A DNA stretch of 24,000 bases from Kitasatospora purpeofusca. Lineage in GTDB: Bacteria; Actinomycetota; Actinomycetes; Streptomycetales; Streptomycetaceae. The translations under genes and the position numbers were made by a program. Positions 1,109-21,692 of this stretch are shown in pieces. Under the pieces are notes generated by a model. It was not told where the DNA came from and did not search any database. It was given only the letters and a program-made list of their open reading frames with translations. Each line of letters begins with the position of its first letter. The stretch's first letter is position 1. The stretch spans positions 405,972 through 429,971 of the forward strand of contig NZ_JODS01000002.1 of the NCBI RefSeq assembly GCF_000718025.1. Direction: 5' to 3'.

Positions 1109-1775
1109 CCTCCACGCCCCCGCCACCGCCCCGGGCCCCGCGTACGACGGGGGCGCCGGGCGGGCCAACGACCCGCGCTGGCGCGGCGGTCCGGCGGTCG
1201 CGGTGAAGATCCTGGTCGCCGGCGGCTTCGGCGCGGGCAAGACCACCCTGGTCGGATCGGTCAGCGAGATCCGGCCGCTGCGCACGGAGGAGGAGCTCAG
1301 CGAGCTGGGCCGCCCCGTGGACGACACCGCCGGCGTCGAGGCCAAGCGCACCACCACGGTGGCGATGGACTTCGGCCGGATCGACCTGCGGCCCGGGCTC
1401 GCGCTCTACCTGTTCGGCACGCCCGGCCAGGACCGGTTCTGGTTCGTCTGGGACGAGCTGGCCCGGGGCGCGCTCGGCGCGCTGGTGCTGGCCGACACCC
1501 GGCGGCTGGCGGACTGCTTCCCCTCGGTGGACTTCTTCGAGCAGCGGCGGATCCCGTTCCTGGTCGCCGTGAACTGCTTCGAGGGCAGTGAGCTGTTCTC
1601 GCCCGAGGAGGTCAGGGACGCGCTCGACCTGGACCCGGACATCCCGGTGGTGCTGTGCGACGCCCGCCGCCGCGAGGACGGCAAGGAGCTGCTGGTGGCC
1701 CTGGTCGAGCACGCGGCGGCGCGCCGGGGGACGAGCACCGGGACGAGCACGGGGACGAGCGCCGGGGCACGCTGA
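1089..1775 (+). CDS. Small ATP/GTP-binding protein (conservon CvnD-like, MglA/Ras-like GTPase)
   Basis: 228 aa. P-loop GGFGAGKTT, DxxG-like FGTPGQDRF, and NCFE in the NKxD position. Overlaps the DUF742 gene by 20 nt. The C-terminus carries a (GTST)n repeat. Confidence 0.9.
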   Translation: MDSVRSDLHAPATAPGPAYDGGAGRANDPRWRGGPAVAVKILVAGGFGAGKTTLVGSVSEIRPLRTEEELSELGRPVDDTAGVEAKRTTTVAMDFGRIDLRPGLALYLFGTPGQDRFWFVWDELARGALGALVLADTRRLADCFPSVDFFEQRRIPFLVAVNCFEGSELFSPEEVRDALDLDPDIPVVLCDARRREDGKELLVALVEHAAARRGTSTGTSTGTSAGAR

Positions 1776-2040
1776 GCCCGCCCGGTCCCGCCCGGCCCCG
1801 CCCGGCCGGGTCCCCCGCCCCGGCCCGACAGGTGGCGTCTCATCAGGGTGTTCACATGCCGGACGATCCTGGGCGAGCAGGTTGCCTTGACGGGCCCGGC
1901 GTGGAAGGCTCTGGTGACGAAGGCCGCCCGGGCCCATTGCCGGGATGCCTCGAACGTGCCGCGCACCCGGTGTGCGTCCGGCACGCGTGTCGCAGCGCGG
2001 TACGGGACGTACCGGCAGACCGAGGGGGGAGGACCGAACC

Positions 2041-2169
2041 ATGAACGTCGAGCAGCGATGTGCCGCGGCCGGGTCCGCCCAAGCCGATCTCGCCATGCCG
2101 GCCACCCCGGCGCTGACCGTCCGGCGGTACATCGACCACGCGCTCATCTGCAGCGCCTGTTGTCGCTGA
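2041..2169 (+). CDS. Candidate 42-codon Cys-containing sORF (MNVEQRCAAAGSAQADLAMPATPALTVRRYIDHALICSACCR)
   Basis: ATG 2041 is preceded by GGAGGA (2028-2033, 7-nt spacer). GC3 is about 85% in this frame and lower in the competing frame 3 over the same span. It ends GCC TGT TGT CGC TGA, nucleotide-identical to the end of the sORF at 4648-4692. No homology-based support. Confidence 0.45.
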   Translation: MNVEQRCAAAGSAQADLAMPATPALTVRRYIDHALICSACCR

Positions 2170-2533
2170 CCTCGCCCACCGTCGCCAGCCACCTCACCGT
2201 CACCGCCGTTCGCCGCCCGGGGGATCTCCCGGCCGGTGCGCCCCTGCCGGAACCACCGGACGGGCCCGGCGGACGCTGACGGTCCATCGCATCGTCGACC
2301 CGGCAGCACCGGACAGCAGTCCGGTGGGCCGTCGTCGGCCCTGCCCGCTTTGCGGAGAGCACCAGTGAAATTCCTCGAACCGTTCTGGCCGTCCCGCCAG
2401 CCACACCTGTTCGACCAGACGTGTCCGGGCTCGCCCAGCGCGTCCCGGCACTCCCTCCGCTGACCTCGGGTCGGTCCACGGCAGCACGCCCGGTAGACGC
2501 GCAGACGACTCCACCCCGTCCGTCACGCGCGAA

Positions 2534-3451
2534 ATGAGCGACACCATGTCCTCCACCTCCACGGCCACTCTTCCTCTCCCCTCCGCGACCCCGCACCTGC
2601 GCGCGGTCCGCTCCGTCCCGTCCCCCGCCGACCGCCGGCACGGGGGTCCCGCGCCGCAGCGCCCGGCCGCCGGCCAGCCCGGCTCCGTGCCGCAGGGGCC
2701 GTCCCAGTCCGGCTTCGGGCAGCCCGGCTTCGGCGCGTCCGGTTTCGCCCCGTCGGGGTCGGCCCGGGTCGCCGCCGCCGCGGTCCCGTCCGTCCCGCAG
2801 ATCGTTCCGGCGCTCCCGCCGCAGGCGCTGCTCGCGGCGCTGCCCGAGGGTGCGGCCGTGGTCGCGGCGCTGCCCCAGGGCTCGCTGCCGCAGGCCCTGC
2901 TGGCCCAGTACGGTGCTCAGTTCGGCGCCTCGGCGGGGCAGCCGATGGTCGGTTACCTGGTGCTGGTCCCGGCCGAGGGCGGAGTCGCCGCCGCGCCGGG
3001 TGCCGGGCAGCAGGGCTTCCCGACCGCCTCGATCCCGGCCCCGCAGGCCGGTCCGGTCGCCGCCGTCGGGGCCTCCGTCCTCGGTGCGCCCGGTACCGGT
3101 GGCCTCGGGGTCCCCGGAGTCGGGACCGCCGCCGCGGCCGGCACGCGACCGGTGCGGCCCGTCGGCCGGGGGATCACGGTCGACACCGAGCGCCGGAACG
3201 CTTACGTGGACGGCCAGTTGCTCGACCTGACGTACCTGGAGTTCGAGCTGCTCGCCCACCTGACGGAGCACCCGCAGCGGGTGCACACCCGCGACCACCT
3301 GGTCTCCGCCGTCTGGGGCTACGGCCACGTCGGCGACGGCCGCACGGTGGACGTGCACGTGGCCAGGCTTCGCCGCAAGCTCGGAGCGGCCTACCGCGAC
3401 AGCATCGTGACGGTGCGTCGGGTCGGTTACAAGTACACGCCGGTGGCCTGA
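2534..3451 (+). CDS. Orphan OmpR/PhoB-type winged-helix DNA-binding protein (no receiver domain; long disordered N-terminus)
   Basis: 305 aa. C-terminal ...LDLTYLEFELLAHLTEHPQRVHTRDHLVSAVWGYGHVGDGRTVDVHVARLRRKLG...IVTVRRVGYKY matches the Trans_reg_C effector domain. The first ~210 aa are Pro/Ala/Gly/Gln-rich low complexity. Strong GC3. The start could instead be ATG 2546. Confidence 0.8.
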   Translation: MSDTMSSTSTATLPLPSATPHLRAVRSVPSPADRRHGGPAPQRPAAGQPGSVPQGPSQSGFGQPGFGASGFAPSGSARVAAAAVPSVPQIVPALPPQALLAALPEGAAVVAALPQGSLPQALLAQYGAQFGASAGQPMVGYLVLVPAEGGVAAAPGAGQQGFPTASIPAPQAGPVAAVGASVLGAPGTGGLGVPGVGTAAAAGTRPVRPVGRGITVDTERRNAYVDGQLLDLTYLEFELLAHLTEHPQRVHTRDHLVSAVWGYGHVGDGRTVDVHVARLRRKLGAAYRDSIVTVRRVGYKYTPVA

Positions 3452-3479
3452 GCACGCACCCCGCTCCTCGTCGCACAGC

Positions 3480-3569
3480 GCGTCCCGCTCCACCGCGTCC
3501 CGCTCCACCGCACGTCGCTGCACCGCACATCGCGTCACCGCGTCCCGCCGTACCGCGCGTCGCGTCACC
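3480..3569. repeat. Degenerate 15-bp tandem repeat x6 in a convergent intergenic region
   Basis: Units are gcgtcccgctccacc (x2 identical), gcacgtcgctgcacc, gcacatcgcgtcacc, gcgtcccgccgtacc and gcgcgtcgcgtcacc. Each ends in (c/t/g)cacc or tacc. The array lies between stop codons at 3451 (+) and 3633 (-). Confidence 0.8.
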
Positions 3570-3580
3570 GATCGGCCGGG

Positions 3581-3609
3581 GGCCGGGCGTTCTTCCCGAA
3601 CGCCCGGCC
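3581..3609. terminator. Bidirectional intrinsic-terminator-like hairpin
   Basis: Perfect 12-bp stem GGCCGGGCGTTC / GAACGCCCGGCC with a 5-nt loop, between convergent genes. No long U-tract, which is common in high-GC actinomycetes. Confidence 0.65.
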
Positions 3610-3632
3610 TCCTTCCGTGTTCTGACGTCGCC

Positions 3633-4415
3633 TCAGATCCGCTGGTCCGGCGGCAGCAGCAGGACCGCGAGCGCGGCGGCGCAGGTCCTGGCGTGGTCCA
3701 GGAACCAGTCCAGCCGCTCGTCGGTGAGGTGGACGGGCGTGGAGCGGACGGCGAGGGCGAACCTGGCCTGGCCGGCGCCGTCCAGCACCGGTACGGCGAC
3801 CGTGCGCACCCCGGTCTCCGACTCGCCGTCGTTCAGCGCGTGACCGGCCGTCCGGACCTTCGCCAGCTCCTCCGCCAGGCGCTCCGGCGCGGTGATGGTC
3901 CGGTCGGTGAACGGTGCCAGCGGGCCGAGCGTCGCCACGCCCGCGTCGCCGGGGCGGGGCCAGGCCAGCAGGACCTTGCCGAGCGCGGTCGAGTGGAGCG
4001 GTCGGCGCAGTCCGAGTCCGGTGTCCGGCCGGACCGAGGCGCCGACCAGTATCACCGCGTGCGGACCGCTGCGGATCGCGAGATCGGCGGCGGCGCCGGT
4101 GCGGCGGGACAGCAGGTCGAGCTCGGGCGCCGCCAGGTGCAGCCCGCGCTGGTGGAAGGTGAGTTGGCCGAGCTCGGCGACCGCCGGGCCGAGCCGGTAG
4201 CGGGCCGTGTGCTCGTCCTGCTCCAGGAAGGCGGCGCTGACCAGGGTGCGGGCCAGCCGGTGCGCCGTGGACACGGACAGGCCCATCCGGCGGGCCAGGT
4301 CCGAGGCGCTCAGGTCGGGGCCGTTGTCGTGGAAGCAGTGCAGCAGTCCGAGGGCCCGCTGAACGGCCTGGGCGCCGGCCGGCGGGCTCTGGGCGGCGGT
4401 GACGGCCTCGGCCAT
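3633..4415 (-). CDS. IclR family transcriptional regulator
   Basis: 260 aa. N-terminal wHTH ...VQRALGLLHCFHDNGPDLSASDLARRMGLSVSTAHRLARTL... and a C-terminal IclR effector domain (...LHSTALGKVLLA..., ...GHALNDGESETGVRTVAVPV...). Divergent from the sulfonate operon. Confidence 0.9.
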   Translation of the reverse strand: MAEAVTAAQSPPAGAQAVQRALGLLHCFHDNGPDLSASDLARRMGLSVSTAHRLARTLVSAAFLEQDEHTARYRLGPAVAELGQLTFHQRGLHLAAPELDLLSRRTGAAADLAIRSGPHAVILVGASVRPDTGLGLRRPLHSTALGKVLLAWPRPGDAGVATLGPLAPFTDRTITAPERLAEELAKVRTAGHALNDGESETGVRTVAVPVLDGAGQARFALAVRSTPVHLTDERLDWFLDHARTCAAALAVLLLPPDQRI

Positions 4416-4498
4416 GGCATCTCTCGTTCTGTCCGTGGCTCCGGTCGTTCACCGGAGTCGCTCCCAGACTATGGCAGCGTGTGCTGCGGGAATGTGTC

Positions 4499-4523
4499 AA
4501 CGGCGTTGCAAAAGGATGCCGTT
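4499..4523. promoter_or_regulatory. Inverted repeat AACGGC-N13-GCCGTT in the lowest-GC patch of the divergent intergenic region (candidate operator)
   Basis: Perfect 6-bp arms at 4499-4504 and 4518-4523 inside the A/T-enriched stretch tgtcaacggcgttgcaaaaggatgccgttcatgaacaagcaatcccatgatg. The binding protein is unknown; the adjacent IclR is the obvious candidate. Confidence 0.3.
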
Positions 4524-4647
4524 CATGAACAAGCAATCCCATGATGTGGCAAACCCTTGCTCCTGGCTCGCCCGCCGTGGAACGCTCGGCGCAGCGCACC
4601 GGGCAGCCCCGTCCGGCGGCGCCCGGACCGCGGGAAGGAGCAGTGCC

Positions 4648-4692
4648 GTGACGACCCACCGGTGCCCCTCCTCCCGCGCCTGTTGTCGCTGA
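4648..4692 (+). CDS. Candidate 14-codon Cys-rich leader sORF (MTTHRCPSSRACCR) of the sulfonate operon
   Basis: GTG 4648 with GGAAGGAG (4633-4640) 7 nt upstream. 3 Cys in 14 codons. Ends GCC TGT TGT CGC TGA. A C-rich, G-poor tract of about 145 nt follows, then the first operon gene. Confidence 0.55.
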   Translation: MTTHRCPSSRACCR

Positions 4693-4836
4693 CGCGCCCC
4701 GGCCCGCGCCGGTCCCGTACGACTCCGCCCCGCCCCCCGTTCCGTTCCACCGCGCCTGGTGACCCCGCACCGCGCCCGCCGCCCCGCCGTCGGCGCCGCG
4801 CACGCACCACGCCCCCGCCGCAGAGGACCAGCCACC

Positions 4837-5910
4837 GTGCCCAGTTCCGCCCGCAGTTCCGTCGAGGAGCCCTCGTCGACCGCCGCCGTTGCCCCGGGGC
4901 CGGTGCCCGACACCCTCTGGTTCACCCGCTGCCCGGTGCCCACCGCGACCGGCATCGCGGCCGACCGGGGCTGGCTGGGACGGGAGTTCGCCCCCGACGG
5001 CATCGCCGTCCGCTCGCTCCAGGACGTGCCTCCGGAGGTCGCTTCCGACCACCACTACACCCACGCCCTGACCGGGCTGTTCCGCGAGGGCGGCAATGTG
5101 CCGGCGCTCTGGGCCCGTTCGCGCGGCGAGCGGACCAGGCTGGTCGGGCTCACCTGGATCGAGGAGCGCCAGGTCGTCCTGGTCCGCTCCGGCAGCGGGG
5201 TCACCGAGCCCGGGCAGCTGCGCGGGCTGCGGCTCGCCGTCCCACACCATGGGATAGCCATCGACTTCTGGCGCGCGATGGCGCTGGCCGGCCTGCACGG
5301 AGCACTCTCGCTCGCGGGTCTCACGCCGGCGGACGTCGAACTGGTGGACGTGCCGGCCGCGCCGGGCGAAGGGCAGTGGGAGGCGGAGCTGACCGCGCTG
5401 CGGGACGGCGTCGTGGACGCGGTCTACGTGAAGGGCGCGCTCGCCGTCGAGGCGGCCCGACGGATCGGGGCGGAGGTCGCCGTCGACCTGGACGCCGTCC
5501 CGGACCGCCGGGCACGGGTGAACAACGGCACGCCCCGGCCGATCACCGTGCGCCAGGAACTGCTCGACGAGCACCCGGACCTGGTGGCCCGCTTCCTCGC
5601 CGTGCTGCTGGAGGCCGCCGACTGGGCCGCCGGGCAGCCGGCCGAGGTCGCTCGGATCCTGGGCGCCGAGACCGGAGCGGGGGAGGAGGGCGTCGCCGGG
5701 GCGTACGCCGCGGGCGGTCACCGCACCCTGCACCTCGATCTCTCCGAGGACCGCCTCGCCCTGCTGGAGCAGCAGGAGCGCTTCCTCGACCGGCACGGGT
5801 TCCTGGCCGGACCGGTCGACGTCCGGGCCTGGGCCGACCCGGAGCCGCTCCGCGCCGCCCGCGCGCTGCTCGCCGCCCGCCGCGCCGAGGGGCGGACGCA
5901 CGGTGGCTGA
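4837..5910 (+). CDS. DszB-like / NMT1-THI5-type substrate-binding-fold protein without signal peptide (possible sulfinate desulfinase-like enzyme)
   Basis: ...DTLWFTRCPVPTATGIAADRGWL... aligns, from my memory of it, with the N-terminus of Rhodococcus DszB (...DTLTYSNCPVPNALLTASESGFL...), including the nucleophile Cys, and with the ...R.GG..P... segment. No signal peptide or lipobox. GTG 4837 is preferred (AGAGGA upstream; GC3 deteriorates upstream of it); the track start 4759 is the alternative. Confidence 0.75.
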   Translation: MPSSARSSVEEPSSTAAVAPGPVPDTLWFTRCPVPTATGIAADRGWLGREFAPDGIAVRSLQDVPPEVASDHHYTHALTGLFREGGNVPALWARSRGERTRLVGLTWIEERQVVLVRSGSGVTEPGQLRGLRLAVPHHGIAIDFWRAMALAGLHGALSLAGLTPADVELVDVPAAPGEGQWEAELTALRDGVVDAVYVKGALAVEAARRIGAEVAVDLDAVPDRRARVNNGTPRPITVRQELLDEHPDLVARFLAVLLEAADWAAGQPAEVARILGAETGAGEEGVAGAYAAGGHRTLHLDLSEDRLALLEQQERFLDRHGFLAGPVDVRAWADPEPLRAARALLAARRAEGRTHGG

Positions 5911-20411: not shown

Positions 20412-21692
20412 ATGCCCACTGCCTCCCCGCAGCCTGCGCCGAACCGGCGCGCCCTCGGCCGCCACCCCGCGCCCCGCCACGCCCGTCCCTCCCACCGGGG
20501 CCGCAGCGCCGCCCTCGCCGCCACCGGGGCGCTCGCCGTCACCGGTGCCGGACTGCTCGGCCTGCCGGCCGTGACCGGCGCCCAGGCCGCCGCCCTGCCG
20601 ACCGTCACCCAGGACAAGCTCGCCCCGGCCGCCATGGTCGCGGGCAAGGCGGCGACCGGCTCGCTCACCCTGCACTCCTCGTCCTGCTTCACCGCGAAGA
20701 CCGTCGGCGTCGGCATCCGCGACGCGGCCGGGCACAACCTCGACTTCCCCGGGAACAAGAGCAACGTCCAGGTCTGCCCGGCCGGCCTGACGGTCACCAC
20801 CGGCGCGCGCACCCTGGCCGCCGGCACCTACACCCAGTTCGGCTTCTGGCAGGACAGCACCGGCGGCTGGCACAACCTGCCCTCCCGCGAGCTCGTCGTC
20901 TCCGCCGCCACCCCGACGCCGACCCCGACGCCGACGCCCACCCCCACGCCGACCCCCACGCCGACCCCGACGCCGACCACCCCCACCACGGGTGCCCCGG
21001 TCGCGGGCAAGACGCTCACCTGGTCCGACGACTTCAACAGCCTCGCCCTGGGTTCCCGCTGGACCGCCGACCGGAGCAGCTCCTACCACTACGGCGACCA
21101 CAACCCGAACGACAACAAGCTCGACTGGCTGAACAAGAACAACGTCGCCGTCTCCGGCGGCGTCGCCACCTTCACCGCCCGGCCGGGCACGCACACGCTG
21201 GAGAACGGCAAGCAGGCCTGGGACACCGGCCTGCTCACCACCGAGTACTCCAGCGAGGGCTTCAAGGTGAAGACCGGGGACTACATCGAGACCCGGGTCA
21301 AGCTCCCGGCCGGCACCGGCGCCTGGCCGGCGCTGTGGACGTGGAACAGCACCAGCGGCACCCACGGGGAGATCGACTCCTTCGAGTACCACAGCGACAA
21401 CCCGAACCTGCTGGAGCTGACCAACCACATCAACCCGGGCCACCTGTACGTCACCGACGCCAAGGCGATCGCCAAGGACAGCTGGGTCACCGTCGGCACC
21501 CACTACGGCGCCACCTCGGTCGACTGGTACATCAACGGCACCAAGGTCTTCTCCGACGGCAAGGGCGTCGGCGCCGGCTGGACGGCCTACCCGATCCTCA
21601 ACCTGTCCCTGAGCGCGGGGAACTACCACCCCGCGCCCTCGGGCACCACGCCGATCACCTTCGCGGCGGACTACGTCCGGGTCTACCGGTAG
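20412..21692 (+). CDS. Secreted glycoside hydrolase family 16 protein (unknown N-terminal domain, Thr-Pro linker, GH16 catalytic domain)
   Basis: 426 aa. Arg-rich N-region plus hydrophobic signal ending AQA. A domain of about 105 aa of unknown family. (TP)n linker at nt 20910-20984. GH16 hallmarks WPALW and the catalytic E-I-D-S-F-E (GEIDSFEY), with a concanavalin-like C-terminus ...ITFAADYVRVYR. Confidence 0.85.
   Translation: MPTASPQPAPNRRALGRHPAPRHARPSHRGRSAALAATGALAVTGAGLLGLPAVTGAQAAALPTVTQDKLAPAAMVAGKAATGSLTLHSSSCFTAKTVGVGIRDAAGHNLDFPGNKSNVQVCPAGLTVTTGARTLAAGTYTQFGFWQDSTGGWHNLPSRELVVSAATPTPTPTPTPTPTPTPTPTPTPTTPTTGAPVAGKTLTWSDDFNSLALGSRWTADRSSSYHYGDHNPNDNKLDWLNKNNVAVSGGVATFTARPGTHTLENGKQAWDTGLLTTEYSSEGFKVKTGDYIETRVKLPAGTGAWPALWTWNSTSGTHGEIDSFEYHSDNPNLLELTNHINPGHLYVTDAKAIAKDSWVTVGTHYGATSVDWYINGTKVFSDGKGVGAGWTAYPILNLSLSAGNYHPAPSGTTPITFAADYVRVYR

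Follow-up and report, generated by a model that had tools for sequence, protein, structure and literature searches.

A conserved Cys-rich small ORF and a proposed cysteine-responsive leader of glnRII in Kitasatospora

We analysed a 24,000-nucleotide stretch of the Kitasatospora purpeofusca genome (contig NZ_JODS01000002.1, positions 405,972 to 429,971; hereafter the window) and, within it, a 42-codon Cys-rich open reading frame (ORF) at 2041–2169 on the plus strand, which we term uORF1 (ATG at 2041, TGA at 2167–2169). We found that the C-terminal end of uORF1 is homologous to validated cysteine attenuator peptides of mycobacteria, and that the regulator gene downstream of it is an orthologue of glnRII. 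We judge it somewhat better than an even bet that uORF1 is translated and works in cis as a Cys-rich leader peptide gene, with a cysteine-leader function as a whole, and we consider cysteine control of GlnRII to be plausible. Cysteine leaders of this type are already known; what is new here is a Cys-codon leader peptide in tandem with a second conserved leader small ORF (sORF) 5′ of glnRII.

uORF1 and its homology to cysteine attenuator peptides

uORF1 encodes MNVEQRCAAAGSAQADLAMPATPALTVRRYIDHALICSACCR, ending in ...ICSACCR before the stop codon. It is preceded by the strong Shine–Dalgarno (SD) sequence GGGGGGAGGA (2024–2033, plus strand), which lies 7 nt before the ATG and has its GGAGGA core at 2028–2033. 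The G+C content at codon positions 1, 2 and 3 is 0.65, 0.60 and 0.84, respectively. An earlier note, made from the sequence of the window, had singled out the ORF for the same features (GGAGGA at 7 nt, good GC at third positions and the ...ICSACCR ending), and all of them were recovered. We compared the window with 80 fetched loci encoding relatives of its regulator, 25 of which are from Kitasatospora. By tblastn and pattern scans, uORF1 was found between cvnD and the regulator in about 20 of the 25 Kitasatospora loci, and the Streptomyces loci were without it; the expectation that it would be conserved next to orthologous regulators was thus borne out within Kitasatospora and failed in Streptomyces. 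The SD sequence GGGGGAGG is kept in all uORF1 orthologues, 6–9 nt 5′ of the start. Orthologues differ in the sequence and length of the N-terminal part (32 to about 70 codons), and the conserved portion is a C-terminal module, ALTVRRYIDHALICSACCR plus the stop codon (2110–2169, plus strand). The final ~19 codons, (A/V)LTVRRYIDHALICSACCR followed by the stop, hardly vary among about 20 Kitasatospora genomes, with a dN/dS of about 0.21 and synonymous changes at Leu (CTG/CTC), Arg (CGG/CGC/CGT) and Ala (GCC/GCG) codons. At least one Cys-Cys pair is retained in all of the ~21 orthologues. Conservation, the strong SD sequence and the dN/dS value argue that uORF1 is not a chance ORF, and this comparison shows it to be a genuine coding sequence under purifying selection. 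Two loci (L009, 3400–3591; L012, 3360–3547) carry a uORF1 with an enlarged Cys-rich C terminus (for example, ...SCRCDSACRCDGACCRGTCCRGTCCR and stop), as if the CCR unit had been amplified.

The best protein match of uORF1 is from K. purpeofusca (98% identity), and database annotation, confined to Kitasatospora, reads only 'hypothetical protein'. A profile search of 1.84 billion representative proteins returned the Kitasatospora orthologues and one weak match (E = 4e-4) to a 479-amino-acid protein, and no copies of uORF1 in other genomic contexts. No Pfam family matched uORF1. The sole match in NCBIfam was NF042936, the 'Ms4527A family Cys-rich leader peptide' (E = 1.3e-3, 18.3 bits), in which residues 24–42 of uORF1 align with profile positions 2–20 of 21. 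Aligned directly with Ms4527A (TPALTVRRYIDHALICSACC with TGSLVARRHVDKR-VCSCCC), uORF1 gave a score of 53, which was reached by 0 of 5000 shuffles, and comparison with Ms5788A gave p = 0.0066. The signature common to uORF1 and the mycobacterial peptides is [ST]L[TV]xRRx[IV]D (in short, LxxRRx[IV]D), placed 10–12 residues before the Cys pair. These alignments show uORF1 to be homologous to validated Cys attenuator peptides.

The mycobacterial peptides are those of Mycobacterium smegmatis (Canestrari et al. 2020 supplement, 10.1101/834739): Ms4527A, VTSARNSITGSLVARRHVDKRVCSCCCLP, which lies ahead of sirA; Ms5788A, which ends in ...SLTKRRAVDLCRVAGCCCCCCCC; Ms4533A, which ends in ...CVADAHCCR; and Ms5280A, MKARTGIKGCCRAQ. 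Attenuation of the genes downstream of these Cys-rich sORFs is relieved when cysteine is limiting (10.1101/834739). In Ms5788A, a ribosome stalled on the Cys tract keeps the tract from pairing with the downstream SD sequence, and silent changes of Cys codons broke regulation (10.1101/834739). Like these polycysteine sORFs of M. smegmatis and Mycobacterium tuberculosis, uORF1 is a short ORF 5′ of, and co-oriented with, the downstream gene, has consecutive C-terminal Cys codons, lacks a classical terminator and shows nucleotide-level constraint on Cys codon choice; its Cys-Cys-Arg ending recurs in Ms4533A and Ms5280A. Unlike the leaderless mycobacterial sORFs, uORF1 has a strong SD sequence and an apparent 5′ untranslated region (UTR), and it is followed by a second sORF and then a transcription factor.

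The start of the uORF1 transcript probably lies at a promoter-like block at 1880–1935 (plus strand), in which TTGCCT (1882–1887) is separated by 17 nt from AAGGCT (1905–1910), the latter preceded by TGG. The block lies ~130 nt 5′ of uORF1 and is kept in 15 or more Kitasatospora loci, and no other non-coding sequence between cvnD and uORF1 is as well conserved. A strict sigma-70 consensus promoter scan of 1700–5000 found no site.

GlnRII and a second leader sORF

The gene downstream of uORF1 (2546–3451, plus strand) encodes a receiver-less OmpR/GlnR-type winged-helix protein with a long low-complexity N terminus. The conserved ATG at 2546 is a likelier start than the alternative in-frame ATG at 2534. 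Pfam found Trans_reg_C only (residues 228–300) and no receiver domain, and the best matches among solved structures were the GlnR entries 8HML, 8HIG and 8HIH. The gene is preceded by a conserved 5′ UTR (2496–2545, plus strand) that ends in the SD region CGCGCGAAATGAGC. The pre-start sequence CGCGCGAAA(T)GAGC, kept in about 55 loci, is the 3′ part of two published glnRII primers, one for the Streptomyces venezuelae knockout and one for the Streptomyces coelicolor promoter. In the S. venezuelae genome (FR845719), the knockout primer matches exactly at the ATG of a Trans_reg_C gene that comes after glnII and a small ORF, which is the second leader sORF described below (uORF2). The DNA-binding domain of the window's regulator is 78% identical to that of S. 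venezuelae GlnRII. Because of the primer match, the common uORF2 and 5′ UTR, and the identity of the DNA-binding domains, we identify the regulator by sequence as the GlnRII orthologue, in place of the orphan regulator that it had been taken for.

Like GlnRII (SCO2213) of S. coelicolor and S. venezuelae, the window's protein is a receiver-less OmpR-family member with a GlnR-like DNA-binding domain, encoded behind the same upstream sORF and 5′ UTR. Unlike the Streptomyces gene, it lies near the conservon genes cvnB–D and an ssu locus and not near glnII, its N-terminal low-complexity region is about 120 residues longer, and it has the extra uORF1. Adjacency of glnRII to glnII was seen in S. venezuelae and Streptomyces californicus, whereas all 25 Kitasatospora loci have cvnB-C-D upstream of the regulator instead. 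According to later papers (PMC3087709, PMC2691820, PMC10704036), GlnRII was described in 2002 by Fink et al. They describe an OmpR-type protein that lacks a receiver domain and has a recognition helix like that of GlnR (PMC3087709, PMC2691820, PMC10704036). It binds promoters that GlnR, the master regulator of nitrogen metabolism, also binds, yet neither its deletion nor transcriptome analysis revealed a part for it in nitrogen control (PMC3087709, PMC10704036). The searchable literature contained no link of GlnRII to cysteine or to an upstream ORF.

The interval between uORF1 and the regulator, which the earlier note had put at 365 nt, is a 364-nt gap; the separation stands, and the note had missed that the gap holds uORF2 (VKFLEPFWPSRQPHLFDQTCPGSPSASRHSLR and stop; 2365–2463, plus strand). 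Its SD sequence is GGAGAG (2354–2359, plus strand), and the arrangement GCGGAGAG-N5-7-GTG is kept in uORF1-bearing loci. The uORF2 core, DLEPFWPSRQxHxFD..C, stands 5′ of the regulator in 74 of the 80 loci, from Kitasatospora, Streptomyces, Streptacidiphilus and Streptantibioticus, and varies at third codon positions. uORF2 is annotated as 'hypothetical protein' in more than 150 clusters, and searches of Pfam and NCBIfam gave no family for it. The Streptomyces form, M...GRxDLEPFWPSRQHHDFDRVCCRAxNAxAL and stop, resembles Ms4527A (p = 0.0026) and itself carries a Cys-Cys-Arg unit, with codons TGT (47 of 47), TGC or TGT (40 and 7) and CGC (46 of 47). The Kitasatospora form has one Cys only, always TGT. 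Cysteine-dependent control of the regulator, as the earlier note had proposed, is strengthened both by the homology of uORF1 to Cys-responsive mycobacterial leaders and by the presence of Cys-Cys-Arg (TGT-TGY-CGC) in the uORF2 of Streptomyces glnRII leaders; the proposal has thereby gained support and is still only plausible.

The presence of uORF1 is tied to the form of the uORF2 start. In loci without uORF1, uORF2 begins as TTCAAT-N6-7-ATG in 54 of 56 cases (5 from Kitasatospora and 49 of 51 Streptomyces-like), a layout that fits a leaderless start. In uORF1-bearing loci, TTCAAT is absent and uORF2 is an SD-led GTG ORF in 17 of 19. The gain of uORF1 is thus paired with uORF2 becoming an internal cistron, and we infer from this that uORF1, uORF2 and glnRII are co-transcribed in the window as a single transcript. 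uORF1 might have been born by duplication of uORF2, but similarity between the two is marginal (p = 0.018 for the Streptomyces form and 0.24 for the Kitasatospora form).

Several further features of uORF2 emerged from the comparison. A small hairpin surrounds its stop (GCUGACC-UCG-GGUCGGU; 2459–2475, plus strand), with equivalents of the form GCTGAC..GTCAGC in other loci and a compensatory GCTGAG/CTCAGC variant in L012. Relative to its closest relatives (L001, 3670–3839), the window lacks, at about 2368–2372, some 170 nt from the variable stretch that encodes the uORF2 N terminus, and just five codons remain before the PFWPSRQ core. In Streptomyces (L026–L080, about 20–60 nt past the uORF2 Cys codons, and L081, 3150–3230), a conserved GC-rich hairpin extends from the Cys-Cys-Arg codons (GCCGCGCG-loop-CGCGCnGGC) and a GGCC-UUCG-GGCC tetraloop hairpin stands 3′ of the uORF2 stop. 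The sequence CGCGCG recurs beside the Streptomyces glnRII SD sequence, permitting alternative pairings.

The shared Cys-Cys-Arg-stop ending and the proposed mechanism

The end of uORF1 contains an 18-nt block, GCGCCTGTTGTCGCTGAC (2153–2170, plus strand; core TGT TGT CGC TGA), that is present exactly twice in the window. The other copy, at 4676–4693, lies at the end of a second short ORF (4648–4692, plus strand), a 14-codon sORF encoding VTTHRCPSSRACCR and stop with a GTG start and the SD sequence GGAAGGAG. This ssu leader precedes an ssu-type operon encoding NMT1-like binding proteins, a permease, an ATPase and a luciferase-like monooxygenase. An exact-match search thus found the two sites previously reported and only those, with unrelated flanks. 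Allowing up to 3 mismatches, 0.10 matches would be expected, and two matches occurred in 0 of 100 shuffles. The two copies share one reading frame, xGC GCC TGT TGT CGC TGA C (Ala-Cys-Cys-Arg-stop). TGY-TGY-Arg-stop was counted 26 times in 643 kb of related loci, each time at the end of a uORF1 or an ssu leader; in all 26 the last Cys codon is TGT, with CGC for Arg and TGA as the stop. TGT is rare in the genes of the window (1, against 20 TGC; about 5% of Cys codons). The pattern V(T/K)xxRC...CCR-stop of the ssu leader was found in 8 of the 9 related loci with the IclR–ssu neighbourhood.

The identical run between uORF1 and the ssu leader of one genome is 10 to 18 nt long, and only 10–13 nt are common to all; the universally common part across genomes is TGY-TGT-CGC-TGA. 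Part of the 18-nt identity in the window is, on this comparison, coincidence, because both leaders happen to have Ala-GCC after an xGC codon. The retention of TGY-TGT-CGC-TGA in two otherwise unrelated leaders therefore shows selection on the core at the nucleotide or codon level rather than recent duplication. The earlier note had argued for such selection on the whole block; the argument is upheld for the core (26 of 26 at the two leaders) and fails for the full 18 nt. We also observed that the Ala codon before the Cys pair (2160–2162 and 4683–4685) agrees between the two leaders within a genome, as GCC/GCC in the window and L002 and as GCG/GCG in L004 and L005. The matching codons may reflect concerted evolution, in a small sample. 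Folding predicts that the SD sequence and GUG of the ssu leader base-pair with the leader's own codons (window 4620–4700, plus strand; also L001–L005, L011, L022 and L023), with its Cys tract GUUGUCGC paired to GUGACGAC around the start codon, so that the leader may limit its own translation. A further short ORF (4479–4544, plus strand), which starts GTG TGC TGC (VCCGNVSTALQKDAVHEQAIP and stop), lies in the A+T-richer intergenic region between the IclR gene and ssu, adjoining a palindrome (AACGGC...GCCGTT). The earlier note may have counted this ORF as its other Cys sORF, and it could be a chance ORF.

We propose a composite leader consisting of the promoter-like block, uORF1 as the first cistron, a C-rich spacer, uORF2 and glnRII. 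A ribosome translating uORF1 would meet a pair of UGU Cys codons, decoded by wobble, two codons ahead of the UGA stop. With ample Cys-tRNA, it would finish quickly and be released, leaving the C-rich RNA behind the stop bare, and expression of uORF2 and glnRII would be cut, most likely by Rho-dependent termination of the tna type. When Cys-tRNA is scarce, the ribosome would pause on UGU-UGU, cover the stop region and melt a hairpin within the ORF, and transcription or translation would continue into uORF2 and glnRII. RNA refolding would be the alternative to Rho at the decision step. The ssu leader, 2.5 kb away with the same Cys-Cys-Arg-stop module, would couple GlnRII to the sulfonate-uptake operon, so that cysteine starvation would raise both. 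We infer the translation of uORF1, the direction of the response and the involvement of Rho from sequence features, and we hold the Rho step with less confidence than the cysteine-leader function as a whole.

Directly 3′ of the uORF1 stop is a C-rich, G-poor untranslated tract (2170–2249, plus strand), a candidate Rho loading site. Its first part, 2170–2218, had been described as C-rich and G-poor, and counting agreed (C 29, G 9, T 6, A 5). Over 2170–2249 the C/G ratio is 1.9, and in 20 orthologues it is about 2 on average, the sequence itself not being conserved. A C-rich, G-poor tract also extends from the ssu leader to the first ssu gene (4693–4836, plus strand; C 82, G 39), and the 80 nt after the ssu leader stop have a C/G ratio of about 2 in 9 loci with divergent sequences. 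As a control, 418 ordinary gene stops gave a median of 1.09 and a 95th percentile of 1.78, with 3.6% reaching 1.9. C-rich composition after both leader stops is conserved, and such a tract behind a leader stop fits the signature expected of a Rho loading site.

In the tnaC-rut-Rho attenuation of the Escherichia coli tryptophanase operon, tnaC senses free tryptophan through its nascent chain. uORF1 is like tnaC in being a leader peptide gene with conserved C-terminal residues that would matter, in having its proposed decisive event at or beside the stop codon, in the C-rich, G-poor tract right after the stop and in lacking an intrinsic terminator. Unlike tnaC, its presumed signal is the supply of Cys-tRNA, and the role of Rho here is a proposal. 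Rho-dependent, tna-like control was proposed earlier for actinobacterial cys leaders (Seliverstov et al. 2005, PMC1262725). Like classical attenuators (the trp, ilvB and leuS leaders of Streptomyces and Corynebacterium; PMC1262725, PMC13236596), uORF1 is a short ORF with putative regulatory codons for the amino acid that would be sensed; unlike them, it showed no terminator/antiterminator pair and no U-tract. An actinobacterial transcription factor behind an upstream ORF has a parallel in mycobacterial whiB7, for which an upstream ORF has been reported to link expression to amino-acid starvation (10.1101/2023.06.02.543512). Compared with glnRII, whiB7 belongs to another regulator family, involves another amino acid (alanine) and has an unrelated leader sequence.

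The 3′ end of uORF1 is predicted to form a hairpin at 2133–2165 (plus strand), with a 5′ arm at 2133–2145 (codons IDHAL) and a 3′ arm at 2151–2165 (SACCR). It appears in the predicted minimum free energy fold of 11 orthologues, with 13 pairs, 91.5% of cells paired and a single exchange of C:G for G:C. In this fold the T of the second TGT, which never varies, would be paired with an A, and the T/C position of the first Cys codon, which does vary, would sit in a bulge. RNAalifold favours a shorter CAGCG/CGCUG hairpin over the one at 2133–2165. A Cys tract within a predicted hairpin could also belong to a leader of the Ms5788A kind, which would sense cysteine and act on translation without Rho: occupancy of the Cys tract would remodel the RNA and free the uORF2 SD sequence and, through it, glnRII. 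This is the sole mechanism demonstrated experimentally for the family, and the importance of Cys codon choice for pairing in Ms5788A is paralleled by the fixed TGT here. However, the Cys tract of uORF1, unlike that of Ms5788A, is predicted to pair upstream within the ORF and not with a downstream SD sequence, the sequence of the spacer is not conserved, and a modelled stall altered the accessibility of the uORF2 SD sequence in only 1–2 of 13 orthologues. An SD switch of the Ms5788A type is thus not supported by the models, and we regard this explanation as improbable, though it deserves to be kept in mind.

Purifying selection at the amino-acid level over 19 residues goes beyond what a pure codon sensor needs, and genome pipelines annotate uORF1 as a protein. 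Both points would suit a small trans-acting protein, such as a Cys/His metal- or redox-binding peptide or a partner of GlnRII, with the CCR tail as a protein motif. Set against this are the variable N terminus and the position of the conserved last ~19 residues, which roughly equal the part in the ribosome tunnel at termination, as well as the homology of uORF1 to cis-acting leaders, the same tail on the 14-residue ssu leader and the nucleotide-level conservation of rare codons and stop codon. We give the trans-acting protein a similarly small chance.

An identical sequence at two sites 2.5 kb apart, both 5′ of regulated genes, might instead be a DNA operator for a common sulfur regulator (for example, the adjacent IclR or GlnRII), with the ORFs incidental. 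This is very unlikely: the block always lies in frame as Cys-Cys-Arg-stop behind an SD sequence and start codon, the codons upstream vary synonymously with only the 10–13-nt core common across genomes, and the block has no repeat or dyad architecture and no GlnR-box enrichment. The least probable readings are that uORF1 is a RiPP precursor, which its Cys-rich C terminus on a short peptide might suggest but which the earlier note already doubted and which the absence of modification enzymes nearby (the neighbours are Robl_LC7, DUF742, ATP_bind_1 GTPase, Trans_reg_C, IclR and ssu ABC/monooxygenase genes) argues against, or that it is a functionless chance ORF, which its conservation, SD sequence and dN/dS exclude.

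Several results weigh against uORF1 being a cysteine-responsive leader of glnRII. The match to NF042936, at 18.3 bits, falls far under the curated cut-off of 45 bits, and uORF1, unlike the mycobacterial family, has only two consecutive Cys codons. The statistics of the in-ORF hairpin are weak, with its covariation score reached by 66 of 500 shuffles and local fold z-scores of only −1.7 to −1.8. When 13 orthologous leaders were folded by partition function under a ribosome footprint imposed on either the Cys codons or the stop, the uORF2 SD sequence did not open consistently, and a search of 1700–5000 for intrinsic terminators (a G+C-rich hairpin with a U-run) returned 0 terminator-like sites. 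uORF2 lies between uORF1 and glnRII, and the gene downstream is a nitrogen-type regulator and not a sulfur enzyme; the ssu leader with the same tail does precede a sulfur operon, as in the mycobacterial family. Adjacency of ssu to the regulator is not conserved, being found in only 9 of the 25 Kitasatospora loci, and the GlnR box GTnAC-n6-GnAAC occurs 3 times in the window against 10 expected, with none near ssu or uORF1. On both counts the link to a sulfur regulon drawn in the earlier note gained no support. Finally, five Kitasatospora lineages have no uORF1 and a single-Cys uORF2, so that Cys sensing is not universal for glnRII.

Genomic surroundings and implications for GlnRII

The window has a G+C content of 74%. 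Its gene order is cvnB (90–509), cvnC/DUF742 (506–1108) and the cvnD GTPase gene (1089–1775; ATP_bind_1), then uORF1, uORF2 and glnRII, an IclR gene on the minus strand (3633–4415), and the ssu leader with the ssu operon. Overlapping ORFs at 1086–2309 and 2144–3568 (minus strand) and at 1848–2279 (plus strand) are Arg-rich, had no family match and were rejected as spurious high-GC ORFs. C-rich imperfect direct repeats occur 3′ of the glnRII stop (3455–3570; CACCGCGTCCCGCT-like units) and 3′ of the cvnD stop (1776–1825; GCCCGG(T/C)CCC units). Rfam, searched over the window at the gathering threshold and over 1700–4900 at E ≤ 1, gave no RNA family in the leader. Its matches elsewhere were a sub-threshold msiK on the other strand and an unrelated c-di-AMP riboswitch (RF00379; 20243–20408, plus strand), which at 47.5 bits exceeds the gathering score and lies directly 5′ of an ORF (20412–21692) with a weak glycosyl hydrolase 16 match.

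Two published observations touch on GlnRII and sulfur genes. The GlnR targets tabulated in PMC10704036 (Table 1) include SCO6102, a putative nitrite/sulfite reductase gene at the head of the cysIHCDN-ssuABC cluster of S. coelicolor, and in an afsS mutant the nitrogen genes of the glnII neighbourhood and sulfate-assimilation genes were both differentially expressed (PMC2267785). A route from GlnRII to sulfur genes is possible on these data. A broader idea, which we advance tentatively and think more apt to be wrong than right, is that GlnRII serves, within an actinobacterial cysteine 'ribulon', as the transcription-factor arm. Its synthesis would be gated by RRxxD...Cys-Cys-Arg leaders in all Streptomycetaceae (uORF2 in Streptomyces, the added uORF1 in Kitasatospora), and it would be made when Cys-tRNA is low, coupling nitrogen promoters to sulfur supply, with the peptide motif acting in the ribosome tunnel. 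If this were true, GlnRII would couple glnII, amtB and possibly the nitrite/sulfite reductase operon to sulfur supply, and a peptide motif kept from Mycobacterium to Kitasatospora would sharpen the pause inside the tunnel. The occurrence across orders of RRxxD before the Cys pair together with a Cys-Cys-Arg ending hints at such a nascent-chain contribution.

The proposed leader would extend Cys-codon leader control from mycobacteria to Streptomycetaceae and from enzyme operons to a transcription factor. In most genomes, uORF2 or the added leader bears the Cys-Cys-Arg signature of validated cysteine sensors, and the presence of a leader sORF at nearly all glnRII loci points to cysteine or sulfur limitation as the condition under which to seek the function of GlnRII. 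The main value of these findings is a testable hypothesis on what GlnRII responds to.

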